Position numbers and translations under genes: made by a program. A stretch of 16,022 nucleotides of DNA from a virus (Duplodnaviria; Heunggongvirae; Uroviricota; Caudoviricetes): positions 1 through 16,022 of the IMG/VR virus record IMGVR_UViG_2526164666_000036; one strand, 5' to 3'. The notes under the pieces were generated by a model. That model saw only the letters and a program-made list of their open reading frames with translations, was not told the DNA's origin and did not search any database. Positions 1,059 to 16,022 of this stretch are shown here, piece after piece (within the stretch, counting starts at the first letter, position 1; every line of letters starts with the position of its first letter).

Positions 1059-1088
1059 AAAAAAAGCCAGCCACTGGGGGAGGCTGGC
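1059..1088 (-). terminator. Rho-independent terminator for the leftward late transcript
   Basis: Stem GCCAGCC / GGCTGGC (1066-1072 / 1082-1088) with 9-nt loop; on the minus strand it is followed by a 7-nt U run (A run 1059-1065 on +). Confidence 0.6.
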
Positions 1089-1271
1089 GAAACTCGTAGA
1101 GCAAAAGTGTTGTTACACTAACTTCGTCACAGGGTTATCCTGCAATACTCAAAATACACAATATTTACAAAACTAATAGTATACAAGGCGATCTTTAAGA
1201 TTTTGTTATAAATTATTGCCTTTCTCCTCTTTCCATGAGCTTTCTGGATAGCCACAGAATTCCGGGTACAG

Positions 1272-1296
1272 AAAAACCCGCTCAGCGGCGGGTTTT
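1272..1296 (-). terminator. Rho-independent terminator (bidirectional hairpin, stronger on minus strand), candidate tR'
   Basis: Stem CCCGC / GCGGG (1277-1281 / 1288-1292) flanked by A5 on one side and T4 on the other; lies about 50 nt downstream of the predicted late promoter. Confidence 0.5.
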
Positions 1297-1345
1297 GCTA
1301 CTTTGGCATCACGTACAAAATCGGCAAAATATCAGATTTGCATGA

Positions 1346-1374
1346 AATATATGCCTTTTAATCTACTTTTGCAA
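1346..1374 (-). promoter_or_regulatory. PR'-like sigma70 late promoter just downstream of the Q-like gene
   Basis: On the minus strand: TTGCAA (1374-1369), 17-nt spacer, TATATT (1351-1346); starts 5 nt after the Q-like stop codon. Confidence 0.5.
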
Positions 1375-1378
1375 TACT

Positions 1379-2047
1379 TTACTGTGAAAATGCCGCCTTT
1401 TGTTTTAAACGTGTTATCGTCACGAACAATAAAGCCTCATTATCCAGCCGGTGAAAAATGTGTTTCATTGCAACCCAGTGGCCAGTAAATGTTTTGGACC
1501 AGTTTTTGGTTGTCACTCCCGCCAGTAATGCCAGCTCCTGGTATTCATAACCTTCCCCACCAAAAAGTTCTGCTTTTACTGCCTGCGCCGCCAGCCAGAT
1601 TAATTTTTTCAGGCGTTCCTGCGTTTTCCCTGCAATTTTTCTGGTACCAGATTGAGTATTAAATTCATTCCACGCCCACTGTGTTATCGCGATCTGATAT
1701 TCCCAACAAATGCTCTCGCTGTAACACCACAACAACCAGGCTTTATGATGTTCTTCAAGAGACAGAACAGCCCGCCGCCACGATGATGTCGAAAACTCAA
1801 CCGGACTGACCAGAGGAATTGATGTCCCCTTCGCCAGCGATTGCTTTCCCGGGATTGGTGGATTATCCCGCGTTATCATTTTTCCGGTCACCTCATCTCT
1901 GTACCGGATTTTTTTTCTCCTGTAACGCCCTGTATCGAACATGGCATTCTCCTGCCAGGCTTCAAGCTGACCTTTTGTTGCCTCACTCAAATCAGCGGTG
2001 GCGATAATGAGCTGCTCACGCACAAACTGTAAATACTGGTTATTCAT
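1379..2047 (-). CDS. Late-gene antitermination protein Q-like, 222 aa
   Basis: Sits immediately downstream of rusA and upstream of a consensus-like promoter plus terminators, the canonical Q position. ATG at 2047 overlaps the rusA stop (ATGA) and is preceded by GGAG; the ORF track's 2053 start is a GTG. Family assignment rests on position and size, not a recognised motif. Confidence 0.6.
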   Translation of the reverse strand: MNNQYLQFVREQLIIATADLSEATKGQLEAWQENAMFDTGRYRRKKIRYRDEVTGKMITRDNPPIPGKQSLAKGTSIPLVSPVEFSTSSWRRAVLSLEEHHKAWLLWCYSESICWEYQIAITQWAWNEFNTQSGTRKIAGKTQERLKKLIWLAAQAVKAELFGGEGYEYQELALLAGVTTKNWSKTFTGHWVAMKHIFHRLDNEALLFVTITRLKQKAAFSQ

Positions 2048-2403
2048 GCGCACTCCAGTTCTGTGATTTTTATCCCCAGCCGCCCACCAGAAACGAGCTG
2101 ACCGCGCACAATATTGATTTCATCAAACTGCTCGTCGTCTATGAGAAGTCCGGCATGCGTCAGCGCATCCAGTGGTGCTTTCAGGATATTGTCCAGGTCA
2201 CGACGACGTTTATCTGGTGGCTCTGCAATAATCTTTATCGCCAGCCGTCCGGACAGGTTTAATTTCAACCGCTGCTGGCGAACAATTAGTGCCACATCAC
2301 GGCGATAACGCTCACCGACTTTTGATACAAAATATGTGTTGCCACGACGTCGCCAGTAAGTATTCACCGTCGGCGGATAAGGCAAAACAAACTCTATACG
2401 CAT
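2044..2403 (-). CDS. rusA: Holliday junction resolvase RusA (crossover junction endodeoxyribonuclease)
   Basis: 119 aa; RusA-like layout including RRRDLDN and GGRL motifs; AAGAGG SD 6 nt upstream of ATG. Confidence 0.85.
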   Translation of the reverse strand: MRIEFVLPYPPTVNTYWRRRGNTYFVSKVGERYRRDVALIVRQQRLKLNLSGRLAIKIIAEPPDKRRRDLDNILKAPLDALTHAGLLIDDEQFDEINIVRGQLVSGGRLGIKITELECA

Positions 2404-2415
2404 CAGTAACCTCTT

Positions 2416-3465
2416 TTACCCGAGCACGCCGGTTGCAAAGGCGTGATCAAGAAAACGAAAAATTAAATCAACCTGGGAACCATGCTTTTCTTCGAACGCC
2501 AGCGGATCCGCATGAAGTTCGTTGTGATGTTCCCGGCACAACGGTAGCGTGAAAATATCGTGGGCCTTTGTTCCCATCCCTCCCTGACCGTGACCAATCA
2601 GGTGATGGGGATCGTCGGCTGGCTGACCACAACACGCACACGGCTGTGTCTTCACCCAGCGCGTATATTTCTCATTTACCCAACGGCGACGTTTAGGTCG
2701 CCTCATGAAAGATTCCGGAGACTCCGGATCAACGGTAACGCTGACCACTGTTTTTTCCTGTAGCGTGGTTTGTTGCTGGTGGACGTGAAGTGGCAGCGCA
2801 ATATTTTTTGTGCGCTGCTTCAGTATGCTGATGGCTGTCTGTTCTCCCGGTACGATGTCACTCTCACGGTATACGGAGCGGATTTTTTCCACCGGTAATC
2901 CCAGCGAACGACGCGCTACTGCCTCAGGTAGTGCATCCACCACCTGATTGCAGGCCGCCCACCAGGATAATTCGGCCAGCGATAACTCCCTCTCCTGCGT
3001 ACCGCTTATTGCGTGACGGATGACGTCAATCATCCAGGCAACCAGATTCTGCTGAGCAAGTTGATCGAGTGATTCTGATGTCTGGTCGCGCAGCTGGTTG
3101 TCACAGTGCCAGCACAACACCATCGCGCCGGCACCGTAACGGTGAATGACTGTTTCGCTGTGATGATAATCGCCGTGTAGCCACTGGCAGGATTTCACGT
3201 GACGTAATAACCAGTCAGACAGTGCACCAGCGCCACCCGCAGCACGGATCACCCGCTCATCGCTGAAAAATGGCAGTAGTGATTTATCTTCCGCCAGCGG
3301 CTGGTGAACGGCAGGTACAACCCCGGACGGCAGAGCTCGCATGCTTTTTGGTTCCGGCTCCACCAGTATTCTGCCGTTATGGAATGCTGACATTGATTCA
3401 CGGCCTGGCTTAACGATAACCAGACCGAGTTCCGGTACCAGAACAGGTCGAAGTAATACCCGCAC
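2416..3465 (-). CDS. DUF968 family prophage protein (YdfU-like) with C-terminal HNH-like Cys/His motif, 349 aa
   Basis: GTG start at 3465 preceded by GGAGG; C-terminus CACCG...DPHHLIGHG...LCREHHNELH resembles a His-Me finger. Length and position (between rusA and hokD) match Qin ydfU as I recall it. Confidence 0.7.
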   Translation of the reverse strand: MRVLLRPVLVPELGLVIVKPGRESMSAFHNGRILVEPEPKSMRALPSGVVPAVHQPLAEDKSLLPFFSDERVIRAAGGAGALSDWLLRHVKSCQWLHGDYHHSETVIHRYGAGAMVLCWHCDNQLRDQTSESLDQLAQQNLVAWMIDVIRHAISGTQERELSLAELSWWAACNQVVDALPEAVARRSLGLPVEKIRSVYRESDIVPGEQTAISILKQRTKNIALPLHVHQQQTTLQEKTVVSVTVDPESPESFMRRPKRRRWVNEKYTRWVKTQPCACCGQPADDPHHLIGHGQGGMGTKAHDIFTLPLCREHHNELHADPLAFEEKHGSQVDLIFRFLDHAFATGVLG

Positions 3466-3466
3466 A

Positions 3467-3745
3467 TTACCTCCAGATCCGTTGCTGGAATGTGCGGGAC
3501 GGACGCGGTGGCCGTTCGGAGTAAGGGAGCCTGACGGAGATTATCCAGTGACGGTAGTCGAGGCTAAGGGCTTTTTTAACCTCGCATCCGCGCCTGCGGT
3601 AACACTGAATGAGCCATTCGGCCTGTTCTTCAGTGCATGGGGGATGCTGGTACCAGTCAGATTTGAATGCGTGAAAACACCGTCCGCGCCTGCTGGCAAA
3701 GACGGCAGAATCATCAGAATTGTATAATTTGGTATCGTGCGCCAT
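3467..3745 (-). CDS. Hypothetical Cys/His-rich small protein, 92 aa (position of rem in Qin)
   Basis: First in-frame ATG at 3745 (MAHDTKLY...); the track's TTG start at 3826 lies inside a terminator U-tract. Stop TAA sits inside the SD-start spacer of the DUF968 gene. SD is weak. Confidence 0.45.
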   Translation of the reverse strand: MAHDTKLYNSDDSAVFASRRGRCFHAFKSDWYQHPPCTEEQAEWLIQCYRRRGCEVKKALSLDYRHWIISVRLPYSERPPRPSRTFQQRIWR

Positions 3746-3813
3746 CGGTTGTCTCTGCTGGCGCAGCAGGTGCCAGTTGTTCAGGCTGGCGTGCGAATTG
3801 TAAACCAGAATGC

Positions 3814-3844
3814 CAGGAAAAAACAAAACCCGCCGAAGCGGGTT
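3814..3844 (-). terminator. Rho-independent terminator downstream of hokD
   Basis: On the minus strand: AACCCGC-UUCG-GCGGGUU hairpin (UUCG tetraloop) followed by UUGUUUUUU. Confidence 0.6.
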
Positions 3845-3912
3845 AAGTGCGGGTGCGTTGAGGATGCCTGATTCATCAGAGGTGGCGAGGGATTTCTCCC
3901 TCGCCGGGTCTC

Positions 3913-4068
3913 TTACTCCTCAGGTTCGTAAGCTGTGAAGACAGCGACCTCCGTCTGGCCGGTTCGGATTCGTACCTCGCAGAGGTCTTTCCTCGTTACC
4001 AGTGCCGTCACTATGACGGTTAAACAGATGACGATCAGGGCGATTAACATCGCCTTTTGCTGCTTCAT
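3913..4068 (-). CDS. hokD: Hok-family type I toxin HokD (RelF), 51 aa
   Basis: Translation MKQQKAMLIALIVICLTVIVTALVTRKDLCEVRIRTGQTEVAVFTAYEPEE matches HokD as I recall it; AGGAG 9 nt upstream of ATG at 4068. The track ORF carries a 19-codon in-frame upstream extension. Confidence 0.9.
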   Translation of the reverse strand: MKQQKAMLIALIVICLTVIVTALVTRKDLCEVRIRTGQTEVAVFTAYEPEE

Positions 4069-4244
4069 AGCCTGCTTCTCCTTGCCTTTCGGCACGTAAG
4101 AGGCTAACCTACATGTGCAAGTCATAGATATGGCCTCAGATTAATGTTAAGCGTCTTGCCGGACGCGTAATGTTAACTGGGGCTTTTCTCTATCTGCCTT
4201 TTGGTGTTCATGCCTGAGACAGATAGCCTCAAGCACCCGCAGCA

Positions 4245-4273
4245 ATTCTACTTAACTTCCCTTTTCTCGCAAA
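4245..4273 (-). promoter_or_regulatory. Candidate sigma70 promoter for the hokD transcript
   Basis: On the minus strand: TTTGCG (4273-4268), 17-nt spacer, TAGAAT (4250-4245); would give a ~170-nt leader before hokD. Confidence 0.3.
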
Positions 4274-4359
4274 TCGTTTTTATCCCCAGCGGCAAATCGA
4301 ATACACCACCAGCGCCACCGCCATCGCAATTCCTACCGTTGTGAATGCTTCAGGCCAGG

Positions 4360-5289
4360 TCATCGATTCACCTCCTGCTCAATATTTTTAAGGTCATTTT
4401 CCGCATACAGTATTGCTGTCCTGGCTGCTCGTAACCGGGCTTTGGCATTTTTCTCTTCACGTTCAAGTTTTGCCACAGCTTCACGAAGAGCATCCCGCTT
4501 TGCATAGAGTGATTTAATCTCAGACACTATGTTTTCACCGTTTCTCGCACGGTCGAGAACAAGCTCGAACGGATCTAAAGCCAATCCGCATCGGTTACAG
4601 GTAATCGTACGATTCACTTCTGAAATTGTTGTACGGATATGCTGACAGCATTTTTGCTCGCCGCTTTTTCTGTCGGTTATCACAACGTTGAGGAGTCCTT
4701 CCTCCTCTGATTTTGGCTGTACCAGGGTGATAACATTGTCGACTTCATTTTTCATCAGTTCCCCCCCCTGCGGCGGTTCCGGTAGCGGCATCCAGTGAGT
4801 TGCCTGCTCAATACCATTACCCGGCTTAATCGTTGCATCTCCGCGCCGGAATGTGCTTCCTGTATAGCGTGCGGAGCATATTAGCGGTTCAACCAGAGAG
4901 CTATCGAAATTCACCGAAATAAGCACGTTCTGGTTCTTTTCAGGCATCCGCTCACTACAGCTTATCCAGCCATTCTTAATGCCACGATCCTGACTCTGAA
5001 GCATGGTGGCGCGGTGACACCAGATAATCCAGCCAAGCGCCATATCCCATGCCATGTATTCGCTATCGCCATTTTTTGCCCTGCGACGATCTACAGATTC
5101 CCCGAAACGCTTCTCCATAAATAATTCATAGGCTGCCCGTTCATCCGATACTGCTTCCAGTGACGCCAGTGCGATACGAAACACATTGGCAAGCAGGCTG
5201 TCTGAAGATTGGATATCGTGCGCCGGGTCGCTCAGGAAACCAGTGATGAATGATTTAATCTCCGCGTTTTCTCTGGTAATAGTGGTCAT
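4360..5289 (-). CDS. Phage protein with DUF551-like motif, C-terminal zinc ribbon and coiled coil, 309 aa
   Basis: ATG at 5289 preceded by AAGGAAAG; ATHWMPLPEPP motif resembles DUF551; CCQH...CNRCG then a heptad-like charged C-terminus (AKLEREEKNAKARLRAA). The track start at 5379 is a longer upstream extension. Confidence 0.7.
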   Translation of the reverse strand: MTTITRENAEIKSFITGFLSDPAHDIQSSDSLLANVFRIALASLEAVSDERAAYELFMEKRFGESVDRRRAKNGDSEYMAWDMALGWIIWCHRATMLQSQDRGIKNGWISCSERMPEKNQNVLISVNFDSSLVEPLICSARYTGSTFRRGDATIKPGNGIEQATHWMPLPEPPQGGELMKNEVDNVITLVQPKSEEEGLLNVVITDRKSGEQKCCQHIRTTISEVNRTITCNRCGLALDPFELVLDRARNGENIVSEIKSLYAKRDALREAVAKLEREEKNAKARLRAARTAILYAENDLKNIEQEVNR

Positions 5290-5290
5290 A

Positions 5291-5509
5291 TCAGCTTTCC
5301 TTATATGGGTTGATTTTGTTGTGCAGTGTGTTGAACGACGCCCATACCACGTCGTTATACAATTCAATAACTGGCTCAATTATTTTCCCGATTGCCCAGA
5401 CAAAAATTAGAGGGGATATCGGTATCATTAACACGATAAACAGAATGAGAAACAGAAATTCTGTTGTTCTACTCTTTCGTGGATATTTTTTTCTGAATAA
5501 TGTGACCAT
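5291..5509 (-). CDS. Possible small membrane protein, 72 aa
   Basis: AT-rich ORF with one hydrophobic segment (FLFLILFIVLMIPISPLIFVWAIG); its TGA overlaps the ATG of the downstream gene (ATGA). No convincing SD, so it may be non-coding spacer. Confidence 0.3.
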   Translation of the reverse strand: MVTLFRKKYPRKSRTTEFLFLILFIVLMIPISPLIFVWAIGKIIEPVIELYNDVVWASFNTLHNKINPYKES

Positions 5510-5636
5510 TCATTACCGCCCTTTCGGGCGGCCTCCTGATGTTTTGAGGGTGCAGGAATCCCTCCGGTTAAGGATTTAATAAAAATCACTTCTGATTTAA
5601 ATTTTCAGTGTTTTGTTGCCAGGTGATTTATCGCCT

Positions 5637-5948
5637 TTACGCTTCAGCCTTATTTCTCAGCCATACACAAACAGGACCATCTTCAGTGTCATGAATGGAA
5701 CCAATGAACCAGCCATCGCCCTCTGGTCGTTCCGGTTCCCATGCTGAAATATCAGGGCCATCTGCGTCCAGGTTAAAATCATCTTCATCCATAGTGCAGA
5801 TAGTCCACTGAAGATTATTTGCCTCCATCCACGCGTTAAATTCCTCTGTGGAAATATATTCACGACCTGCGCAAAACTTTTCATACTCAGGATGTGTCCA
5901 GCAGCCATATTCATCACGTACTACTGGTATTTCTTTAATTTCATTCAT
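5637..5948 (-). CDS. Hypothetical acidic protein, 103 aa
   Basis: ATG at 5948 preceded by GGGAGAA; start overlaps the upstream gene's stop by 8 nt. Confidence 0.55.
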   Translation of the reverse strand: MNEIKEIPVVRDEYGCWTHPEYEKFCAGREYISTEEFNAWMEANNLQWTICTMDEDDFNLDADGPDISAWEPERPEGDGWFIGSIHDTEDGPVCVWLRNKAEA

Positions 5949-6195
5949 TTCTGTTCTCCCACGTTTTCAGACTTTCACCACAGAACGGACAAAATGAAAC
6001 CCGCACTGGTGATTTAGAAAATTCACCGGAACGCAACATCACCAAATCAGGGCCGCGAGTTAAACTCTCATTCCAGATTTTGTATATCAGCAGACCTTTT
6101 CGCGTCGTGTATTCAGCATCATGCTCAAGGGATTTTGCCAGTGCCGTACACGGTTCTATCTTGTTGCCATAAACCTGGCATTTTGATTCATTCAC
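5941..6195 (-). CDS. Hypothetical protein with Cys pairs (possible zinc ribbon), 84 aa
   Basis: GTG start at 6195 preceded by AGGAGA; overlaps neighbours at both ends; contains KCQ...C and CPFCG. Confidence 0.5.
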   Translation of the reverse strand: MNESKCQVYGNKIEPCTALAKSLEHDAEYTTRKGLLIYKIWNESLTRGPDLVMLRSGEFSKSPVRVSFCPFCGESLKTWENRNE

Positions 6196-6469
6196 TGGTT
6201 TCTTTCTCCTGTCTGAACATCATGATCATCAGGCCATCTTTTGTTGCTACCCTGACTGTTGTTCCTGGCTCTATGCTGCCAAGGTCAAATGCGTCATAAA
6301 ATTCATTCAACGCTTTCTGGTGTCTCTCCTGTTTGCGTCGCTTTTCCCACTGCTTCAGAAAAACAGAGGTCACCCACTTCCCCGCGCTGAACATGATGTA
6401 AAACCAACCAAGCAGGGCCAACCCCGTGTTGAGGGCTGTATCAATCGTTATTGTTGTGTCGATATTCAC
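6188..6469 (-). CDS. Hypothetical single-pass membrane protein, 93 aa
   Basis: GTG start at 6469 overlapping the upstream stop (GTGA), preceded by AGGAGA; hydrophobic segment GLALLGWFYIMFSAG. Confidence 0.5.
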   Translation of the reverse strand: MNIDTTITIDTALNTGLALLGWFYIMFSAGKWVTSVFLKQWEKRRKQERHQKALNEFYDAFDLGSIEPGTTVRVATKDGLMIMMFRQEKETSE

Positions 6470-6762
6470 TGTGTCTTCTCCTGGAAAATAACTGCATGCC
6501 CCAGCTTCTCCGCCAGTGCCAGTTCCGCCTTAGCGCCTGCTGACCGCTGCCAGCCTTTCAGCATGTAAATCGCATCCACACAACGAATCATTGCCATGCA
6601 AATATCCATGTAGTGTGGCTGTGTCAGCCCGTCCGGAAGTACTGCCGGGGTTAAGACGGTATGCCCTTCCCGTTTCAGTTCCTCTTCCGCCTTGTGAAAC
6701 GCCTCACGGTTGAAATTTTCATATCCCGTCATTGGACCGGCAATATAAACTCTCACCCTCAC
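6466..6762 (-). CDS. DUF4406-like protein (nucleoside deoxyribosyltransferase-like fold), ~98 aa
   Basis: VYIAGPMTG...LTPAV...LKGWQRSAGAKAELALA pattern; GTG at 6762 overlaps the upstream stop (GTGA). The track's longer start at 6831 would overlap the upstream gene by 72 nt. Confidence 0.55.
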   Translation of the reverse strand: MRVRVYIAGPMTGYENFNREAFHKAEEELKREGHTVLTPAVLPDGLTQPHYMDICMAMIRCVDAIYMLKGWQRSAGAKAELALAEKLGHAVIFQEKTQ

Positions 6763-7151
6763 TCCATCACCTCCTGAAAGTTTCCCCGATAGAACGCCAG
6801 CACACGCTGCATAACTTCGCTCTGGCGGCACTCACGACAAATTATGTTCTGCCGTCTGTTGTAACGACGTATTTCTCCGTCAGGTAACTTTCGAATCAGT
6901 GTCGGGTCAGCAGCCTTCTCCGGTGTCTTACGCCATACGCGATACGCCTGCTCTGATGGAAATACCCCGCAACCAGAGAGCCAGACATCACCACTGGCCG
7001 CAAGCGCACCAGATAAACGACGAATAGCGGTCTTACTGACACCCGTTTTATCTGCCAGTTGTCGAAAAGTTTCTCGTCCGCTCAGGCGCACGAATTCCAC
7101 AATGCGCGCCTTCACTTCTTCCCGCTCTTCTGGTGTAAATTCTTTTGCCAT
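6759..7151 (-). CDS. Hypothetical HTH-containing phage protein, ~130 aa
   Basis: ATG at 7151 preceded by GGAGG 5 nt upstream (the track start at 7166 is TTG); helix-turn-helix-like stretch TFRQLADKTGVSKTAIRRL. Confidence 0.55.
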   Translation of the reverse strand: MAKEFTPEEREEVKARIVEFVRLSGRETFRQLADKTGVSKTAIRRLSGALAASGDVWLSGCGVFPSEQAYRVWRKTPEKAADPTLIRKLPDGEIRRYNRRQNIICRECRQSEVMQRVLAFYRGNFQEVME

Positions 7152-7166
7152 AAGCGCCTCCGGCAA

Positions 7167-7937
7167 TCACTTTTCCGATACAACACGGCGGGAAGAATCA
7201 GTAATCTGTCGAACAATATCCCGGTGCTTGTTCAGCTCCCGCAGCGCGGCGCAGACTCGCTCCCACTTCTGAACATCACTTTTCGCCCTGCGCAGCGCCA
7301 GGTTTGCCCTGCGAAGGGACGGAAAAATCAGCTCATCTGCTTGCGTTTCGGTAAACGATGGCAACGGCTGCACAATGTCCGCCACAGTTTCTGTTTTAAT
7401 TTCTTCCTGTGTTGCGGCTTCCCGGACTGGTAACGCAGCACCTGCTGGCTGAGGAAAGGCCTTACCATCACTTTCCGTTACCAGCGCGGCTTTCGGCTCT
7501 GCTGGTAAATTATCGCCCGGCATGCAGTAACGAAATTTACCGTTCTGATTAACGCGTGCCAGCCGCCCCGTTGCGGTTACCACCGCCAGCGTGGAAGCAA
7601 CCTTGCGAGTACTGACACCGAACTTACCCGCCAGTTCCTCACACGTTTTAGCCCCATCCTGACCGATAAACTCAATCATCATGTCTGCGGTAACTTTTTG
7701 TTCGACCTCCCCGGTCAGCATATCCTGTGCTTCAGATTTTACTGGCCGCTCTTCGGTTACCCGGGATTCACCTTCGCCAGCCAGAAACCAGGTGTGACCC
7801 GTTTTATCAACAACGCCATTTTTTTTGAGTTCCCACAGTTCGTTGAGAACTTCTTCACGGCTGATATCAAGCCGCGCCGCCAGTTCAACAGAATTGGCTT
7901 TACCCATCGCTTTCAGTGCATGCAATACGGTTTCCAT
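7167..7937 (-). CDS. Hypothetical protein with two winged-helix-like repeats, 256 aa
   Basis: ATG at 7937 preceded by GGAGGA 7 nt upstream; two similar segments ([24 protein letters not shown] and [24 protein letters not shown]). Confidence 0.6.
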
Positions 7938-7966
7938 TAAAACTTCCTCCGGATAAAAATTACTTC

Positions 7967-8707
7967 TCAGTTCCTGTGCTGGCTGACGTTCGGACGCCAG
8001 CTCTCCCAGTTAAACGTCACCCAGCGACCACCGTTCATGGACATGCGGTCCATCACCCGCTCGCCGAGAAGTGTATTCATCGCTGCATGGTTAAGATTTG
8101 TCAGCATCCCCACACTGAGTAACGATGCCGTTCTGCGGTCAACAATCTGATTCAGCGTGACCTGCTCATTACGCGTATCCCGTTGCATGCCAATTTCATC
8201 CAGTACCAGCAGGTCAACGCCACACAATCCCTGCAAAAATTTTTCGCCCGAGTTTTTGTTGTCGTAGCTGCCATGTAACGCCAGCATCACATCCGCCACT
8301 GTTATCACAATCACACTGCGACCTTTCGCCAGAAGGTGGTTGCCAATAGCCGCCGCCAGGTGGTTTTTTCCTGTGCCAGGCCTGCCACTGAAAACAAAAT
8401 TCGTACAGCCGCCTTCCAGCTCTGCCGCAATGGATTTCGCCTGACTCAGGGCATGGCGCTGACCATCGTTCTGCACCCGGTAGTTACCGAACGTACACTT
8501 CCGGTGAAGCGGCTGGATACCGGAGCGGTTAATGATTTTTTCAACCCGCGTCTGATGATTCAGACGATTAACCTCCTCGCTTCGCTTACGCCCTTCAGCA
8601 AGCTGCCATTCCCGCCACTCCGCCACCGTACGGTACGGAGGGATTGCATCCTGCGGCACAAATCTGCTGACTCTTGCCAGAACACCACCTGACGTAATGT
8701 TTTTCAT
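7967..8707 (-). CDS. DnaC-like replicative helicase loader (YdaV-like / phage P analogue), 246 aa
   Basis: Walker [16 protein letters not shown] and Walker B LLVLDEIG; immediately downstream of the O-like initiator gene. Confidence 0.85.
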
Positions 8708-8713
8708 GGTGCG

Positions 8714-9682
8714 CTACCCCCTGAAACCCGGCGGAATTTCGGTATCCGGTTCAGAAATATGATTCACGCAACGCTGCGCGGGCGAACGCCCCAGGCGGAT
8801 AACCAGTTCATCCCATTTTTCCCGGAGTTTTGCCGGACTCATGATGTTTTTTACCCAGAACGAATCCCGTTGAACACGCCCAAACATTTCACAAATCTGT
8901 CGGTGACTACGTCCATCCAGCATACGCATCATGCGCACATCATTCGCCCAGGTCGTCCAGTTAGGCTCTCTGGGGCGTGATACCTCCCCATCATCACTGG
9001 CGGCCTGTTCATACAACGCAACAACCCGTCCCCAGATCCACTGTGCACACGTCAAATCCTCCCGGGTTCCCCACTGTCGCTTTGGTACATTCCAGGTATG
9101 CGCATCCGGGTGTTTCTCCAGAAATCGCTCGACCGGTGATGCTTGTTTTTCGTCCGGCAGTGAAACGTCCGGACAAGAAGATCTTTTATCTGACGGATCA
9201 GGTTTTAATACTGACGGATCGGGGTCAATCATCGCCCCCCTAATCGGCAGTTTTTTATCAACAGTTGATCCATCAAAATTTGACGGGTCAACCGTTGAGG
9301 GGTCAATATTTGACGGGTCAACTGTTAACGGGTCATTTTTTGCCGGGCTAATTTTTCTTTTCGGTTTATATGACTCACGCGCCGCCGCCGCAGCTGCTTC
9401 GAGTTTTTCCACATTAAGCCGATAGATATTGCTTACATTACGCCCACCGACCTTACGCTCTTCCTTCGTCAGCCAGCCCTCTTTCGCCAGTTCTGCAATA
9501 GCCGATTTCACTGTGGATTCACTTCTTGCACCGATCTGACGCCGGATAGTTTCAATGGCAGGCCATGACACGCCCTCGTCATTGCTGTAGTCTGCAAGAC
9601 GGGCCATAACCGCCACCCTGGATAAGATCATGCCGGTGAAGGCGCACCCTTCCCAGACAAGACCATGAAGCTTGCTGCTCAT
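8714..9682 (-). CDS. Replication initiator O-like protein (YdaU-like) with N-terminal HTH
   Basis: ATG at 9682 (alternative GTG at 9697); central linker DPLTVDPSNIDPSTVDPSNFDGSTVD is encoded by the DNA iterons, as with ori inside lambda O. Confidence 0.75.
   Translation of the reverse strand: MSSKLHGLVWEGCAFTGMILSRVAVMARLADYSNDEGVSWPAIETIRRQIGARSESTVKSAIAELAKEGWLTKEERKVGGRNVSNIYRLNVEKLEAAAAAARESYKPKRKISPAKNDPLTVDPSNIDPSTVDPSNFDGSTVDKKLPIRGAMIDPDPSVLKPDPSDKRSSCPDVSLPDEKQASPVERFLEKHPDAHTWNVPKRQWGTREDLTCAQWIWGRVVALYEQAASDDGEVSRPREPNWTTWANDVRMMRMLDGRSHRQICEMFGRVQRDSFWVKNIMSPAKLREKWDELVIRLGRSPAQRCVNHISEPDTEIPPGFRG
9190..9340. repeat. Iteron array: candidate prophage replication origin inside the O-like gene
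   Basis: Repeated GACGG(A/G)TC at 9192, 9213, 9281, 9311; palindromic cores TCAACAGTTGA (9257-9267) and TCAACCGTTGA (9287-9297); exact 13-bp repeat TTTGACGGGTCAA 30 bp apart; followed by an AT-rich stretch at 9334-9370. Confidence 0.6.
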
Positions 9683-9704
9683 AAAACCCCCGAACACCGT
9701 GCTT

Positions 9705-10130
9705 TTAGTGCATCACCACAGCATTCCCTGCCGGGCCGCCGCGATTCATCTGGTCATACAAAACAACCGCTGACGCAACAAAATCATCGACATCCTTCAC
9801 CAGCCGATCCCTCCGTTCGACGATCTCACGGTAATATTCAGAACTGTGGCTGCGCATACGGGCCACCAGCAAAGGCGGCATCGCCTTTTCGATCGCCGGT
9901 AACAGAGCCTGCATTTTTTCAACAGCATCAGGGGTGTCTTTCTCTACCCAGCGGAAAATTTTCTGGGTATTGCGAGCCAGGGCTTCCGGATGGCTGTCGT
10001 CATACAGTTCTGGGAACGTCATACCCAACTCAAAATAAGCCTGGGTTATTCCAGCTGCTGGAACTTTTTCGCCATCAGGACGCGCCCAGGCATTCATCGC
10101 CATGCGGATGTGTTCATGCTTGATTTTCAT
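9705..10130 (-). CDS. YdaT-like protein (CII-position regulator), 141 aa
   Basis: Begins MKIKHEHI; AGGAG SD; directly downstream of, and overlapping by 17 nt, the Cro-like gene, as in Rac ydaS-ydaT. Confidence 0.65.
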   Translation of the reverse strand: MKIKHEHIRMAMNAWARPDGEKVPAAGITQAYFELGMTFPELYDDSHPEALARNTQKIFRWVEKDTPDAVEKMQALLPAIEKAMPPLLVARMRSHSSEYYREIVERRDRLVKDVDDFVASAVVLYDQMNRGGPAGNAVVMH

Positions 10131-10395
10131 GAATCAAGCTCCTAGAAAGTGGTTGTGTTAACGTTTTGGTATCTTCCAGCTCGGGCCAAATATTCATCCA
10201 ATCAAAAGGCCTTAGTTGCTGACGTGTAACTTCACCATTACTGGCTCGCTCAATAAGGACACATAACGATGCCCCTAACACTTGACCTTTACTCAATGCC
10301 TTTCTTAGATAACCGATGCTGGTACCACACTCGCATGCAAACATACGCTGTTCATCTGACGAAAGAGAATTGAGAAATATTCTTAATTCTTCCAT
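10114..10395 (-). CDS. Cro-like HTH regulator (YdaS/DicC family), 93 aa
   Basis: HTH-like FACECGTSIGYLRKALS and IERASNGEV...LRP pattern; AAGGAG SD 5 nt upstream of ATG; divergent from the repressor gene. Confidence 0.7.
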   Translation of the reverse strand: MEELRIFLNSLSSDEQRMFACECGTSIGYLRKALSKGQVLGASLCVLIERASNGEVTRQQLRPFDWMNIWPELEDTKTLTQPLSRSLIHENQA

Positions 10396-10495
10396 AGCTA
10401 CTCCTTAGTAAACACAGCAAAGAATACCCACAGGTAAACAAAAGTCAATACCCACAGGTTGTTTACCTTGCGGTAATCGCATCTATTATTTACCT
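10396..10495. promoter_or_regulatory. Divergent immunity promoter/operator region
   Basis: Direct repeats AATACCCACAGGT at 10423-10435 and 10447-10459, plus TTTACCTATGGA at the repressor ATG. Minus strand carries TTGACT-16-TATTCT for the Cro-like gene. On the plus strand TATTAT (10484-10489) sits 6 nt before the repressor ATG with no SD, implying a leaderless mRNA. Confidence 0.55.
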
Positions 10496-10915
10496 ATGGA
10501 CAAATATGAATTTAGACGACAGCAACTCATCAAAATTCGTGATGAGAAATGCGATGGTAAAGCGGTTAACGTGGCCAGAAAGATCGGGCGCGAGCCTTCT
10601 TATGTATCAAGAATGTTGTACCCAGAGGGGAAAAAGGGAAAAAAACGGATCGCTGATGATATGGTGGAGATTATCGAAGAGTCCTTTGGGTTACCCCGGG
10701 GATGGATGGATGGTATCGTTTCATCATCAACGAACACAGCCTCCAGTTATGAAACAAGGGTTCTAACGCCACGACAACGTATTTTTTTAGATCTCTTAGA
10801 CGAACTGCCAGAAAGTGAAGCGGATAAATTATTAAAAACTCTTGAAGAGAAAAAACAGTATTACAATATGATCTACGAAGAAATCCGTAAAAAGAAAGCA
10901 CAAAACGCATCATAG
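10496..10915 (+). CDS. cI-type prophage repressor (DicA/RacR-like), 139 aa
   Basis: Divergent from the Cro-like gene; N-terminal HTH region; C-terminal LPESEADKLLKTLEEKK resembles the DicA C-terminus as I recall it. Confidence 0.75.
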   Translation: MDKYEFRRQQLIKIRDEKCDGKAVNVARKIGREPSYVSRMLYPEGKKGKKRIADDMVEIIEESFGLPRGWMDGIVSSSTNTASSYETRVLTPRQRIFLDLLDELPESEADKLLKTLEEKKQYYNMIYEEIRKKKAQNAS

Positions 10916-10955
10916 CTCACCAAACAACTAGTCACCAGTTAAGACACCGCAAAAA

Positions 10956-10997
10956 TTTACCCATGGGTATTTACTTTTTAAATACCTATGGGTATCC
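10956..10997. promoter_or_regulatory. Two palindromic operator-like sites at the early operon promoter
   Basis: TTTACCCATGGGTATTT (10956-10972, perfect palindrome TACCCATGGGTA) and AATACCTATGGGTATCC (10981-10997), same half-site as the divergent region; overlap candidate -35/-10 hexamers. Confidence 0.5.
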
Positions 10998-11180
10998 TTC
11001 TTTTCATACCAACCCACCCCGCCCCACAGAATGCAGGGCAATACTTCGAGTTACCAGGCAGTGGTCAGGGGTTAAGTAGCCAGCCCGAGGCGTAAGAACA
11101 TGACGGCAGGGTTCAACTTTAATAACTATGCAGCAGGTTTTTGTTCCGCTACCCCGGCGTTAAGGGGAAATGAGGTCAGC

Positions 11181-11333
11181 ATGGATACTATCGATCTTGG
11201 CAACAACGAATCTCTGGTATGTGGCGTGTTTCCCAATCAGGACGGCACGTTTACCGCGATGACGTATACCAGAAGCAAAACGTTTAAAACGGAAGCTGGC
11301 GCGCGTCGCTGGTTAGCAAGAAACTCTGACTGA
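11181..11333 (+). CDS. Small protein YdfA/YdaF-like, 50 aa
   Basis: ATG at 11181 with GAGG 5 nt upstream; MDTIDLGNNESLV... resembles Qin YdfA as I recall it; first gene after the repressor. Confidence 0.55.
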   Translation: MDTIDLGNNESLVCGVFPNQDGTFTAMTYTRSKTFKTEAGARRWLARNSD

Positions 11334-11344
11334 TGAGGTTGACG

Positions 11345-11983
11345 ATGGAATTTAAAGATTTACCTCCTTCAATCCAGGAGATTGCAGCACACACACTTCG
11401 TCATCGTCTGAACGAACTTGAATTGGAATCGGTAACGAAAAAAGACACTGATAATATGGCTCGTAATGTGCGCGATGCGTTTACCGGATTGTATTTCTGT
11501 GCGTCTATAAATAAACACGACTCAGAGAGTGTGGCAAATAAAATTGCAGAAACGACAGCGCAAAACATCAATACGAAACCAACGGAAGAAGAAATTGATC
11601 AGTTTGCTCATGATGCTGGTTTAAAAAACAAGAAAGAAAAATCGCCATATGCGGGGAACATGTTTGTTTATGACAATCTCATCAGAATTCGTGGCGAAAT
11701 TCCGGCGGAATACCTGGCAAGAGTCCATCAGGCATTGCTTAAAAATTTGGAAACAGAATTATTTGATGGCAACACTAACGGTTTCTTCATGGTATCAGGC
11801 CTTGAGAAAGACTGGGATGCAGAAAAACGCTGGAATGTTGCTACATGGTTATTCAGTAACAGAGCCGCTGCACTGGAAGCTTCGGCATGTATTTGCGGCC
11901 TGTTCTTAACAGACCACAAATATAATCTGGATGTGTACAGTTATATTTACGCTGAACACGGTCCACTCTGGATTGACTGGTAA
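11345..11983 (+). CDS. Hypothetical protein of unknown function, 212 aa
   Basis: ATG at 11345 with GAGG 7 nt upstream (alternative ATG at 11333 overlapping the upstream stop); no motif I recognise. Confidence 0.6.
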   Translation: MEFKDLPPSIQEIAAHTLRHRLNELELESVTKKDTDNMARNVRDAFTGLYFCASINKHDSESVANKIAETTAQNINTKPTEEEIDQFAHDAGLKNKKEKSPYAGNMFVYDNLIRIRGEIPAEYLARVHQALLKNLETELFDGNTNGFFMVSGLEKDWDAEKRWNVATWLFSNRAAALEASACICGLFLTDHKYNLDVYSYIYAEHGPLWIDW

Positions 11984-12531
11984 TTATAAGGAAACACCAG
12001 CAGGGCCGCGGCGACCAACAGAACGATTAAAATCAATAATGCCATTATAAAGGACATTATTTAATTTATCGTCGAATGCTGATTCTGTGAGCCTCAACTC
12101 TGAATGAGTTTTTAATAACCCTGATTGCCTGAGTTGATTTACCAGGCATTCAATCTGTTTTTCAATAAGCGGATTTCTTTTTTGTTTGGCATTTTATCCT
12201 CCATTGAGGTTCTGGGTTAAAAATGGAGACCAACACGCTGTCACGTGTGGTCGTGCGCCGGACACGGATAAGAATCCGGTACTGACAGTTTACTGAAAGG
12301 ATATTTCCCTGAAAAGTCAGTGCATAACGCGAAAGCGTACGGCGAAGCTCTTTCCCTTAGAAGGCTTGTCGTTAGATTTCTTCGAACGTGCGCTTCCGGT
12401 TGTGGCACTCCGCGAAATGGCGCGGCGGTAAGTATGGCGGGGTTATTCCTTCCCCAGTTGAGGACACCGGGTTGTCAGGTTGACCATACGCTTAAGTGAC
12501 AACCCCGCTACAACGCCCTCTGTTATCAATA

Positions 12532-12589
12532 TTCTGGTGACATTTGGCGGTATCAGTTTTACTCCGTGACTGCTCTGCCGCCCTTTTTT
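12532..12589 (+). ncRNA. dicF: DicF small regulatory RNA
   Basis: TTCTGGTGACATTTGGCGGTATCAGTTTTACTCCGTGACTGCTCTGCCGCCCTTTTTT matches DicF as I recall it, apart from one or two changes near the 5' end; ends in its own GC-hairpin plus U-tract terminator; lies just upstream of dicB. Confidence 0.85.
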
Positions 12590-12759
12590 AAAAGTGAATT
12601 TTGTGATGCGGTGAATGCGGCTCAGCGCACGCGGAACAGTTAAAACCAAAAACAGTGTTATGGGTGGATTCTCTGTATCCGGCGTTAATTGTTAACTGGT
12701 TAACGTCACCTGGAGGCACCAGGCACCGCATCACAAAATTCATTGTTGAGGACGCGATA

Positions 12760-12948
12760 ATGGAAAAGTTATCATGTAATGCCAGCACGTCTGAACTTCG
12801 TTTCGAAATTGGCGTTATCACTGGAGACAAAACATTTATTGAAGACGCCATTAAGCAGAGAAAACTCGAGCAGGACCTGTTAAATGAAGTATGCATTCCT
12901 TCAATGCTGGCTCGTCTGGACCTGCTGCAAAAAGGATATAAACAATGA
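12760..12948 (+). CDS. dicB: Cell division inhibitor DicB, 62 aa
   Basis: ATG at 12760 with GAGGA upstream; shares FEIGV, EDAI, SMLARL blocks with K-12 DicB; directly downstream of DicF. Confidence 0.8.
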   Translation: MEKLSCNASTSELRFEIGVITGDKTFIEDAIKQRKLEQDLLNEVCIPSMLARLDLLQKGYKQ

Positions 12949-13136
12949 ATACAACATTTGCACTCGTTCTGACAGTTTATCTTGTTTCCGGCGAATCTCT
13001 TGAGCTGGTGACTGGCTTATACGGTTCAATGAAAGAATGCATGGCTGCAGCAGCAGAACAAAAAATTCCCGGTAACTGTTATCCGGTAGATAAAACTACT
13101 CACACTAATAATAACGAAATACCGGCAGGACTTTAA
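12945..13136 (+). CDS. ydfD: YdfD-like small membrane/lysis protein, 63 aa
   Basis: ATG overlaps the dicB stop (ATGA); AAGGA SD; hydrophobic N-terminus TTFALVLTVYLVSG; same position as ydfD in Qin. Confidence 0.65.
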   Translation: MNTTFALVLTVYLVSGESLELVTGLYGSMKECMAAAAEQKIPGNCYPVDKTTHTNNNEIPAGL

Positions 13137-13229
13137 AACAGCACCGTAATTAATATCCGGTTTCATTTTTATATGCCAGCAATGGCAGGGATTTGTTCAC
13201 CCTTAAATCTGTAATGAGGTTAAAACAAA

Positions 13230-15701
13230 ATGAGTAAAGTCTTTATTTGCGCCGCCATTCCGGACGAACAGGCAATAAAAGAAGAGGGCGCAGTTGCTGT
13301 AGCCACTGCCATTGAAGCCGGTGATGAACGCCGCGCCCGTGCCAAATTTACCTGGCAATTCCTGGAGCAATATCCTGCTGCTCAGGACTGCGCTTATAAA
13401 TTTCTTGTCTGCGAAGATAAACCTGGCATGCCCCGCCCTGCTATCGACTCCTGGGATACCGAATATATGCAGGAAAACCGCTGGGATGAGGAATCCGCTT
13501 CCTTTATTCCGGTCGAACCAGAATCCGATCCTATTAACGTCAATTTTGACAAGCTGTCCCTTGAAGTACAGAACGCGGTCCTGGTTAAGTTCGGTACATG
13601 TGAAAACATCACCGTTGATATGGCGATTGACGCGCAGGAATTACTGCAAGAAGACGTGGCTACCTTTGACGGACATATCGTTGAAGCACTGATGAAAACG
13701 CCTGAAATTAACGCTATGTATCCGGAACGCAAACTGTTCGCTATCGGATGGGTTAAACACAAATGTAAGCCGGGTACCAAATGGCCCGAAATTCAGGCTG
13801 AATTACGTAACTGGAAAAAACGGCAGGACGCAGAGCGCAAAGAGACTGGAAAATACACGTCTGTTGTTGATCTTGCCCGCGCCAAAGCCAACCGACAGCA
13901 CACTGAAAACCCAGCAGAAAAAATCCCTCCTGTAACTGCCGCCATTCATCGCGAATACAAGCAGACATGGAAAACCCTGGACAGGGAGCTGGCCTACTAT
14001 CTCTGGCCTGGTGATGCGGATGCCGGAAACATTGACGGCAGCATCCTTCGCTGGGCTAAAAATGAAGTTATCGCCAGAGATCGCGAAGACTGGAAGCGCA
14101 TCTCCGCATCAATGCGCAAACAACCTGATGCGCTTCGCTACAGCCGCCAGACTATTTTTGGCCTTGTCCGTGAACGTCCGATCGACATTCACAAAGACCC
14201 TGTGGCACTGAACAAATACATTACTGAATACCTGACTACAAAGGGCGTGTTTGAAGATGAAGGAAGAAATCAGAGCGCAACTGATACTCTCTCGTCGCCA
14301 GTACCAGAAACTGATGCAGTGGAAACGGCAATTCAGGACAACGAAAAAACCGAATGCAAAGTGGAAGTCGAATCATCTGTAGAGCGTGAGGGGCCGTTCT
14401 ACTTCCTCTTCAGCGACAAGGATGGCGAAAAATACGGTCGTGCAAACAAACTTTCTGGTCTGAATAAGGCGCTGGCTGCAGGGGCTACTGAAATCACGAA
14501 AGAAGAATATTTTGCCCGCAAAAACGGTACATACTCAGGTTCACAACAAAATACTGGTGCATCTGACACGATCGCACAACCGGAGCCGGTAAAAGTTACC
14601 GCTGACGAAGTAAACAAAATTATGCAGGCAGCCAATATCAGCCAGCCTGACGCCGATAAGTTGCTTGCTGTATCACGTGGTGAATTTGTTGCAGGGATTA
14701 GCGACCCGAATGATCCGAAATGGGTGAAGGAGATTGAAACCCGCGATTCAGTGAATCAGAACCAGCAAGAAACGGAACAGAACGACCAGAAAGCGGAACA
14801 AAACAGCCCAAATGCGTTACAAAACGAGCCAGAAACGAAACAATCCGAACCAGTAGTGCAACAGGAACCGGAAAAAGTCTGCACCGCCTGCGGTCAGAGC
14901 GGTGGCGGCAACTGCCCCGATTGTGGCGCTGTCATGGGCAACGCAACATACCAGGAAACATTCGATGAAGAGAATCAGGTTGAAGCTCAGGAGAATGATC
15001 CGGAGGAAATGGAAGGCGCTGAACATCCACACAAGGAGAACACTGGCGGCAATCAGCATCACGCCAGCGATAGTGAAACTGGCGAGGCGGCAGATCCCTT
15101 AATTAAGGTGAATGGTCATCACAATCTCACATCCACCAGCAGAGCGGGGATTCATCTGATGATCGACATTGAAACCATGGGAAAAAATCCCAATGCCGCG
15201 ATTATCTCAATAGGCGCAATATTTTTCGATCCACAAACCGGAGATATGGGACCGGAATTTAGCAAGACCATCGATCTGGATACTGCTGGCGGAGTTATTG
15301 ATCGTGACGTCATTAAATGGTGGCTGAAGCAATCACGTGAAGCGCAGTCTGCCATTCTGACCGATGAAATCCCGTTAGATGATGCACTACTGCAATTGCG
15401 GGAATTTATCGCCGAAAACTCCGGTGAATTTTTTGTTCAGGTCTGGGGAAATGGAGCCAACTTCGACAACGTGATTTTACGCCGTTCATACGAACGGCAG
15501 GGGATCCCCTGCCCCTGGCACTACCACAACGATCGCGATGTACGCACAATCGTTGAGCTAGGGAAAGCCATAGACTTCGATGCCAGAACAGCTATCCCAT
15601 TCGAAGGTGAGCGCCACAATGCACTTGATGACGCCCGTTACCAGGCAAAATACGTTTCAGCTATCTGGCAAAAACTGATCCCGAGTCAGGCTGATTTTTA
15701 A
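13230..15701 (+). CDS. Large prophage protein (YdfE-like N-terminus) with internal zinc ribbon and C-terminal DEDDh (DnaQ-like) 3'-5' exonuclease domain, 823 aa
   Basis: C-terminal motifs MIDIETMG (Exo I), GNGANFDNVIL (Exo II), HNALDDARYQA (Exo III); CTACG...CPDCG ribbon around 14878-14930; Q/E-rich low-complexity linker around 14755-14875. Confidence 0.8.
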   Translation: MSKVFICAAIPDEQAIKEEGAVAVATAIEAGDERRARAKFTWQFLEQYPAAQDCAYKFLVCEDKPGMPRPAIDSWDTEYMQENRWDEESASFIPVEPESDPINVNFDKLSLEVQNAVLVKFGTCENITVDMAIDAQELLQEDVATFDGHIVEALMKTPEINAMYPERKLFAIGWVKHKCKPGTKWPEIQAELRNWKKRQDAERKETGKYTSVVDLARAKANRQHTENPAEKIPPVTAAIHREYKQTWKTLDRELAYYLWPGDADAGNIDGSILRWAKNEVIARDREDWKRISASMRKQPDALRYSRQTIFGLVRERPIDIHKDPVALNKYITEYLTTKGVFEDEGRNQSATDTLSSPVPETDAVETAIQDNEKTECKVEVESSVEREGPFYFLFSDKDGEKYGRANKLSGLNKALAAGATEITKEEYFARKNGTYSGSQQNTGASDTIAQPEPVKVTADEVNKIMQAANISQPDADKLLAVSRGEFVAGISDPNDPKWVKEIETRDSVNQNQQETEQNDQKAEQNSPNALQNEPETKQSEPVVQQEPEKVCTACGQSGGGNCPDCGAVMGNATYQETFDEENQVEAQENDPEEMEGAEHPHKENTGGNQHHASDSETGEAADPLIKVNGHHNLTSTSRAGIHLMIDIETMGKNPNAAIISIGAIFFDPQTGDMGPEFSKTIDLDTAGGVIDRDVIKWWLKQSREAQSAILTDEIPLDDALLQLREFIAENSGEFFVQVWGNGANFDNVILRRSYERQGIPCPWHYHNDRDVRTIVELGKAIDFDARTAIPFEGERHNALDDARYQAKYVSAIWQKLIPSQADF

Positions 15702-15770
15702 TGTTCAACCATCGCCGGTTGTGACTGGTATTCTGCAACCGGCCCTCATCTGATGTAAGAGATAAAAGCG

Positions 15771-16022
15771 ATGAGCGAAGTAATCATGATTGTCTCTCCC
15801 GGTAAATGGGTATCCGAAGAGCAGTTAATTGCGCTGAAAGGAATAAAAAAAGGTACGTTAAAAAAGGCCCGGGAAAAATCGTTTATGGAAGGAAGGGAAT
15901 ATAAGCATGTCGCTCATGACGGTATGCCATGGGATAACAGTCCATGCTTTTACAACCTGGAAGAAATTGATCGCTGGATTGAGCGCCAGGCATCTGCAAG
16001 ACCAAGACGTCATCTTGCTTGA
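15771..16022 (+). CDS. Excisionase-like small DNA-binding protein, 83 aa
   Basis: Small basic protein at the prophage end downstream of the recombination-region gene; size, position and YNLEEIDRW-type C-terminus fit Xis/AlpA-like proteins. Assignment is positional. Confidence 0.5.
   Translation: MSEVIMIVSPGKWVSEEQLIALKGIKKGTLKKAREKSFMEGREYKHVAHDGMPWDNSPCFYNLEEIDRWIERQASARPRRHLA

Follow-up and report, generated by a model that had tools for sequence, protein, structure and literature searches.

The window analysed here is a stretch of 16,022 nucleotides (nt) from a virus of the Caudoviricetes (IMG/VR record IMGVR_UViG_2526164666_000036, positions 1 to 16,022), and is part of a Qin-like lambdoid prophage. 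We found that an open reading frame (ORF) for a protein of 212 amino acids (aa), located on the plus strand at 11345-11983, and an adjoining convergent gene for a 69-aa protein together make up one allele of a swappable two-gene cassette present in Escherichia and Salmonella prophages. The convergent gene pair, the modular build of the 212-aa protein, the polymorphic slot that the cassette occupies and the minus-strand gene with its leader go beyond an earlier reading of this DNA from its letters alone (hereafter the sequence-only reading). The 212-aa frame and the good Shine-Dalgarno (SD) sequence described in that reading are indeed there, with an ATG at 11345, 212 codons, a TAA stop at 11981-11983 and the SD motif GAGGT at 11335-11339 on the same strand, 5 nt ahead of the ATG. 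An ATG further upstream, at 11333, begins a 216-aa version in the program-made ORF list; it was rejected as the start because both the homologues and the RefSeq entry (WP_000394548.1, 'hypothetical protein') begin with MEFKDLP, which corresponds to 11345. Over residues 1-212 of 212, the protein matches PHROG 2151 (E 1.8e-147), a family whose function is given as unknown.

The 212-aa ORF represents a genuine and conserved early gene of the prophage, the second in an early operon of the dicB type (PL-like). The first gene of this operon is a ydfA-like DUF1391 gene (11181-11333, plus strand; Pfam 9.3e-30) whose stop lies 11 nt ahead of the 212-aa start. The DicF small RNA (sRNA; 12532-12583, plus strand; Rfam, 77 bits) follows 548 nt downstream of the 212-aa ORF, and dicB (12760-12948, plus strand; Pfam 7e-39) comes next. 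With DUF1391 upstream on the same strand and DicF and dicB downstream, the locus is a Qin-type dicBF early operon, and the 212-aa gene sits in the slot of ydfB and ydfC, the only two genes between ydfA and dicF in the Qin prophage of K-12. Both the placement of the gene in the dicF/dicB operon and the statement about K-12 had been made in the sequence-only reading, and both held up, the first by Pfam and Rfam and the second on the K-12 sequence itself. The operon flanks are 86-91% identical to K-12, and DNA homology to K-12 ends at 11326 and restarts at 12252. YdfB and YdfC of K-12 were compared with the 212-aa protein as candidate relatives and were dropped, as they show no similarity to it. 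A scan of the region found no terminator-like site ahead of DicF.

Homologues of the 212-aa protein at 67-90% identity retain the full reading frame. The ratio of nonsynonymous to synonymous substitution rates (dN/dS) for the whole gene is 0.19-0.27, against alleles with a dS of 0.44-0.54; by part, it is 0.14-0.18 for residues 98-212 and 0.31-0.43 for residues 1-95. Values of 0.14-0.27 indicate that the ORF codes for protein. The gene is AT-rich and moron-like (41% GC versus 49% for the window), and its product is acidic, with an isoelectric point (pI) of 5.2, a net charge of -10, a grand average of hydropathy (GRAVY) of -0.48 and neither hydrophobic segments nor a signal. The protein had been called unrecognised, and this description stands: it has no match in Pfam, NCBIfam or PADLOC-DB v2 (zero families), and none among PDB sequences, whether searched as a single sequence or with profiles. 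These searches also gave no homology to a structural or housekeeping protein, the kind of match named beforehand as speaking against an accessory role. For the exclusion, anti-defence or host-interference function that the sequence-only reading regarded as typical of such positions, PADLOC returned nothing in support and the fold searches pointed in no direction.

The family is narrow. Of 5426 complete E. coli genomes, 566 carry the cassette at a coverage of at least 80%, and a phmmer search of 1.8 billion representative proteins returned 35 matches at E<=1e-3, from enterobacterial prophage-like DNA; a 548-aa repeat protein among these matches was judged spurious from its sequence. No locus was found in the GTDB representative genomes. 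In open literature searches we found no description of the 212-aa protein or of the cassette structure of the slot, the only remark being that of Balasubramanian et al. (2016) on non-conserved genes around dicF in O157.

The 212-aa protein consists of two modules, an N-terminal helical module with a linker (residues 1-97, encoded at 11345-11635) and a C-terminal alpha/beta domain of about 115 aa, here called type A (residues 98-212, encoded at 11636-11983). Residues 1 to about 56 match four further PHROGs (1363, 9419, 6937 and 33007) whose members have unrelated C-termini, and this N-module heads short proteins in many prophages and in 74 records of Shiga toxin (Stx) phages, where the gene lies in the early-left operon. 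The type A C-domain, on the other hand, occurs only in prophage-like elements of Escherichia and Salmonella; a profile search with it did not widen the family, adding only Salmonella relatives, and it was found neither in PLSDB plasmids nor in the cultured phages of INPHARED, where the N-module occurs alone. The domain (residues 98-212) recurs in Salmonella proteins of 206-220 aa that have another N-terminus (MFNVKRNG...). In a 286-aa relative (loci L017-L019, 5001-5861), an XRE-type helix-turn-helix (HTH) domain, HTH_3, stands between an alternative N-terminus and the type A C-domain, and this relative still has a convergent small gene behind it.

The structure prediction and fold search suggested in the sequence-only reading were run and left the fold unassigned. 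An AlphaFold2 model built from 30 sequences has low overall confidence (predicted local distance difference test, pLDDT, of 65.7) and predicts four N-terminal helices followed by a C-terminal domain of topology b-b-a-b-b-a-b; pLDDT is 65-84 across most of residues 101-190 and just 61 for residues 151-160. Fold searches with the model were uninformative and gave no assignment, a SUI1/eIF1-like fold having been considered. The invariant positions of the C-domain are mostly hydrophobic, Gly or Pro, together with D141, N145 and E178. No catalytic signature is evident among them, and their mostly hydrophobic, Gly or Pro character fits a binding fold better than an enzyme.

The 212-aa ORF had been described as followed by about 550 nt without a plus-strand ORF. 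There is indeed no meaningful plus-strand ORF in this interval. Its minus strand, however, has a gene for a 69-aa protein (11984-12192; RefSeq WP_001133037.1; PHROG 4274, function unknown), which adjoins the 212-aa stop, and the structured leader of that gene lies in the interval as well. The 69-aa protein is basic (pI 9.7) and hydrophilic (GRAVY -0.53), its gene is under purifying selection (dN/dS 0.12-0.28), and it shares 52% identity with its positional counterpart in a Salmonella diarizonae element, where the DNA has otherwise diverged. The family of this small protein, with 42 clusters from Escherichia and Salmonella, is just as narrow as the C-domain family. The 69-aa protein has no match in Pfam, NCBIfam or PDB (profile search), and PHROGs give only families of unknown function. 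A hydrophobic peptide of 24 aa or more resembling a type I toxin (MSFIMALLILIVLLVAAALLVFPY...) can be read in another frame of the minus strand at about 11990-12062; it was rejected as the product of this region, since it is missing in the Salmonella locus where the 69-aa frame is kept, and it is probably fortuitous.

In the window itself the small partner is inactivated by a frameshift and the 212-aa half alone is intact. A 1-nt deletion leaves six instead of seven T residues at 12178-12183 (codons 5-6), so that the ATG (12190-12192) is out of frame. Most of the identical prophages have seven Ts; the six-T allele is also found in the O26 strain RM8426 and in 5 of the 59 IMG/VR and reference loci bearing the pair. 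The missing T could reflect a homopolymer sequencing error, a tract prone to slippage or a pseudogene specific to the lineage.

Behind ydfA, and with or without ydfB, further E. coli prophages have the same N-module joined to other C-domains, each with a different convergent small gene. Type B (186 aa) is paired with a Cys-rich 61-aa protein in 3/3 fetched loci and type C (112-119 aa) with a 64-aa protein in 22/22. The layout recurs in at least three additional types, in which a protein of 133 aa goes with a small gene of 92 aa, proteins of 106-124 aa with one of 95 or 73 aa, and a protein of 135 aa with one of 77 aa. All in all, one N-module is found ahead of at least six C-terminal types, the exchange border being at codon ~50 or ~69. 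By DNA comparison, the segment exchanged between cassette alleles spans 11494-12179 in the window, the borders being 11493/12180 with respect to type B and 11552/12187 with respect to type C. It comprises the 3' three-quarters of the plus-strand gene and all of the minus-strand gene but its first four codons. Since the borders fall inside the N-module on one side and within the first four small-gene codons on the other, the swapped part consists of the 3' portions of both convergent genes, and their 5' parts and expression signals are constant between alleles.

The occupancy of the slot between ydfA and dicF, which the sequence-only reading had proposed to tabulate, was determined in 70 DicF-bearing IMG/VR loci and proved to be polymorphic. 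The K-12 arrangement of ydfB and ydfC accounts for 33 of the 70 loci, and 12 more have both genes plus an N-module gene. An N-module gene with another C-terminus fills the slot in nine loci and type C with its 64-aa gene in four; type A with the 69-aa gene, the allele of the window, occurs once. The remaining loci have ydfB only (3/70), YdfC only, with no YdfA detected (3/70), or no recognised gene (5/70).

The type A C-domain and the 69-aa gene are consistently found together. All 59 loci that were anchored on the N-module and have a type A C-domain and enough room downstream (56 of the 212-aa form and 3 of a 200-aa Salmonella form) carry the 69-aa gene on the opposite strand, and when the 69-aa protein served as anchor, the C-domain lay next to it in convergent orientation in 65/65 IMG/VR loci. 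The pair was found in E. coli Qin-like operons, after ydfA; in Salmonella elements where an HTH_35 gene and a 106-aa gene precede it and a second cassette follows in tandem; in Salmonella elements after cox, with the other N-terminus and the two genes overlapping by 53 nt; and, also after cox, in the variant with the HTH insert, where the genes overlap by 11 nt. In the post-cox Salmonella elements, the C-domain is only 28-31% identical (alignment A2; 33-38% by BLASTP) and the small protein 52%, and the pair thus persists there through saturated synonymous divergence, with a different N-terminus and different flanks. DicF was found in none of the Salmonella elements with the pair. The tandem arrangement (L005 5001-6499, and also L006 and L007) consists of the N-module/type A gene with the 69-aa gene, then a 119-aa N-module gene with a convergent 64-aa gene, each cassette having its own copy of the conserved leader. 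As a separate observation, pair-bearing Salmonella elements (L005 8251-9576, L009 7582-7669 and L010 2657-2744) contain repeated copies of C4 antisense RNA and isrK beside Phage_ASH and Derepression genes; this region, downstream of the cassette, looks like a secondary immunity arrangement of the P1/P7 type.

Upstream of the small gene, a leader on the minus strand (12193-12293, the element extending to about 12340) is conserved in all cassette types and in the DicF-less Salmonella elements. Its helix 1 (12258-12279, CCGGAU...GUCCGG) is invariant. In helix 2 (12228-12252), pairing is kept with differing sequences in E. coli, Salmonella and K-12, both bases being replaced in three of the four shared pairs. 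Helix 3 pairs CUCCAU (12223-12228) with AUGGAG (12199-12204) and covers the SD sequence of the small gene, so that on the basis of its predicted pairing it would sequester the ribosome-binding site. All 14 sequences with a cassette keep this helix intact; K-12, where the small gene is absent, has lost it and keeps helices 1 and 2 only; standard pairs fill 95.6% of the alignment cells for helix 3, all of the unpaired cells being in the K-12 row. As helix 3 is invariant, covariation lends it no support. Because K-12 retains helices 1 and 2, these two may also serve the DicF precursor on the plus strand. A -10-like element seen by eye at about 12287-12293, some 10 nt upstream of helix 1, marks a putative promoter for the small gene; another promoter-like site on the minus strand (12220-12191) was discarded, as it overlaps the start codon.

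Taken as a whole, the locus leads us to favour, tentatively, a cognate two-protein accessory module of the antidote or self-immunity kind whose two halves are expressed in opposition. The C-domain and the 69-aa protein would be a cognate binding pair, one neutralising the other; the opposite charges of the two proteins (pI 5.2 and 9.7) were counted for this reading. By extrapolation from K-12, the operon would be silent under the immunity repressor and form one transcription unit on derepression (PMC10448788). While the operon is repressed, a promoter of its own would drive transcription of the small gene, whose translation would be throttled by the leader helix hiding its ribosome-binding site. 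Upon derepression, the 212-aa protein would be made at once from the early promoter, and the early-operon transcript would, in addition, be fully antisense to the small gene. The module would then act in accessory interference, either as a toxin-antidote pair or as a defence with cognate self-immunity, and would not be needed for phage propagation. The basic nature of the small protein, its presumably throttled translation and the HTH-bearing relative of the large protein favour the small protein as effector and the large one as neutraliser, whereas the layout of an N-module with a variable C-terminus, as in polymorphic effectors, favours the large protein as effector.

Several points weigh against such a module. 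Most of the paired loci are near-identical prophages of enterohaemorrhagic E. coli (EHEC), and only about four contexts are independent; co-inheritance could result simply from linkage, with conserved recombination flanks on either side. A frameshift disrupts the small gene in L007 as well as in the window, and the large gene is truncated in L016 and L013; since either partner can be lost while the other is intact, neither strictly needs the other while the prophage is repressed. The N-module proteins of Stx phages have no convergent partner, and the convergent orientation itself is unlike that of known toxin-antitoxin or effector-immunity pairs. The promoter of the small gene is a weak consensus match (8/12) that a simple promoter scan missed, a comparison of minimum free energies between the two strands does not settle which strand carries the leader RNA, and the model of the 212-aa protein is of low confidence. 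Binding between the partners, toxicity and any phenotype are predictions.

It is possible, if doubtful, that the 212-aa protein instead works alone as an early accessory protein, for example as an inhibitor that uses its acidic surface against a host or competing-phage factor, and that the 69-aa gene is an unrelated linked moron. Its early-left position beside the host-interference factors DicF and DicB (PMC5069750, PMC6832061) and its net charge of -10 would fit such a role, as would the intact state of the 212-aa gene where the partner is frameshifted and the partnerless N-module proteins of the Stx phages; with the exchange borders lying in conserved flanks, linkage of the two genes would be expected in any case. 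The pairing, however, outlasts saturated synonymous divergence and a change of both N-terminus and flanks in the Salmonella elements, every distinct C-domain type has its own distinct small partner, and the protein has no match to known anti-defence or defence proteins in Pfam or PADLOC.

A wider proposal, which we regard as unlikely, is that the ydfA-dicF slot and the post-cox slot of the Salmonella elements host an undescribed class of polymorphic cassettes working as an inter-phage competition system. An effector expressed in the lysogen would harm a superinfecting phage or the infected cell, a cognate neutraliser expressed early would give the resident prophage self-immunity, and an arms race among related prophages would drive the diversity of alleles.

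We think it rather improbable that the locus is chiefly a regulatory device, in which the small gene, its promoter and its leader would mainly control read-through into the toxic DicF/DicB functions and the 212-aa protein would be carried along as a passenger or have a minor co-regulatory part. Control of this sort would be exerted by transcriptional interference, antisense pairing or RNase III processing. The two genes abut without a terminator between them, and their transcripts must therefore overlap; leader helices 1 and 2 are present in K-12 without the small gene, processing by RNase III ahead of DicF has been documented for K-12, and one relative has the C-domain fused to HTH_3. Yet the pair and its leader are also found in Salmonella elements without DicF or DicB, and purifying selection acts on the amino-acid sequences of both proteins, which a role played by RNA only would not need. 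Lastly, it is highly improbable that the ORF is decaying or non-functional in a cryptic prophage and kept by hitch-hiking: although the family has very few members (35 at E<=1e-3 in the search of 1.8 billion proteins), the C-domain is in no INPHARED cultured phage and the partner is frameshifted in the window, dN/dS is well under 1 for both genes, the ORF is full-length over alleles at 67-90% identity and the architecture is conserved across genera.

The reading of the two genes as a cognate module can be set beside several known systems. Polymorphic toxin-immunity cassettes such as CdiA-CT/CdiI and Rhs-CT/RhsI have a constant N-terminal part, exchangeable C-domains and an allele-specific small gene directly downstream in the same direction. 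The cassette of the window shares the constant N-module, the swappable C-domains, the allele-specific adjacent small gene and the exchange borders inside the N-terminal part. It differs in that its partner gene is convergent, that no delivery, secretion or known toxin domain was found (Pfam, PADLOC) and that its products are small, cytoplasmic and encoded in an early operon. Type II toxin-antitoxin systems are co-directional bicistrons whose antitoxins often carry an HTH domain; here, too, there are two small proteins of opposite charge, and one relative of the large protein has an HTH, but the genes are convergent, with their 3' ends abutting or overlapping. Neither protein has toxin-antitoxin family homology in Pfam or NCBIfam, nor does the 212-aa protein, the only one of the two compared, in PADLOC. 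The mRNAs of type I toxins (hok, tisB) have a sequestered ribosome-binding site and encode a small hydrophobic membrane peptide. The small ORF resembles them in its long conserved 5' leader, the helix over its SD and its full antisense overlap from the opposite strand, and departs from them in that the 69-aa product is hydrophilic and basic and a dedicated antisense sRNA was not identified.

Among prophage loci, the slot occupies the same place as ydfB/ydfC in K-12 Qin, after ydfA (DUF1391) and before the DicF leader, DicF and dicB; it is set apart by the lack of similarity to YdfB/YdfC, by the convergent small gene and leader helix 3, both absent from K-12, and by a different immunity protein. 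The early-left genes of lambda and Rac (ral, sieB, kil/kilR) likewise lie between the immunity region and the recombination/exonuclease genes and are non-essential, AT-rich and mosaic, but there is no homology to them and the convergent cognate-pair architecture is not theirs. Owen and colleagues reportedly described in 2021 the BstA/aba system of Salmonella phage BTP1 as a prophage defence whose self-immunity is a DNA element. Like it, the cassette is a repressor-proximal accessory locus and, in the logic proposed here, a factor of the lysogen would be neutralised by an early function of the resident phage; there is no sequence or domain similarity to BstA, and the self-immunity of the latter is a DNA element and not a protein. 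The 212-aa protein thus belongs to PHROG 2151 and to a Qin-type dicBF operon and stands outside the known toxin-antitoxin, defence and polymorphic-toxin families; the likeness of the locus is, at most, to a cognate-pair cassette.

DicF affects virulence and cell division. EHEC strains (O157, O26, O103, O111) have several early operons of the dicF/dicB type, in which the genes co-transcribed with DicF are uncharacterised. Matched, exchangeable pairs under a shared translation-control leader make this 'hypothetical protein' locus experimentally tractable. If the pairs do turn out to be effector-neutraliser modules, they would represent a new architecture among prophage conflict systems, convergent, embedded in an early operon and domain-swapping, and might help explain prophage-prophage interference in poly-lysogenic EHEC.

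As to the wider setting, identical copies of the window are found in EHEC genomes (O103, O157 and O26), integrated beside rspB/ynfA. Their annotated order begins with Q, rusA, hokD and replication genes, continues on the minus strand with a ydaT-family gene and a cro-like gene, and then on the plus strand with a 139-aa protein in the position of DicA, the ydfA-like DUF1391 gene, the 212-aa ORF, DicF, dicB, a DUF1482 gene (ydfD), an 823-aa exonuclease, xis and int. The 139-aa protein in the DicA position (10496-10915, plus strand) has a DicA-like C-terminus (33% identity over 46 aa), no HTH match in Pfam and an NCBIfam score of 24.5 bits, far under the cut-off of 101 bits; these features suggest that its immunity specificity is different and its DNA-binding domain divergent. 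Control of the operon by this protein would follow by analogy with K-12, where the whole ydfA-dicF-dicB unit is a single transcript from the DicA-repressed promoter dicBp (PMC10448788). RNase III cleaves the K-12 DicF precursor some 137 nt ahead of DicF, at a site that by homology would map near 12395 in the window. Directly after the DicA-position gene, at 10958-10994, lies a large imperfect palindrome (TACCCATGGGTA ... TACCTATGGGTA) that was scored as terminator-like in our scan and could equally represent paired operators overlapping the early promoter.

Further features of the window touch neither gene of the pair. The 823-aa 'exonuclease' (13230-15701) has an Rv2179c-like 3'-5' exoribonuclease domain at its C-terminus only (residues 642-813), its first ~640 residues giving nothing in Pfam at E<=0.01. 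Between DicF and dicB, at 12597-12737 on the plus strand, lies an STnc100-like match below threshold (37.4 bits versus a gathering score of 47), and a full STnc100 copy (133.7 bits) is found at the opposite end of the window and on the opposite strand, at 812-1000. Also on the minus strand, a sok antisense RNA (4063-4238; Rfam, 115 bits) adjoins hokD, a toxin gene that the annotation of the identical RefSeq locus places at L001 4513-4668 (about 3912-4067 in the window).

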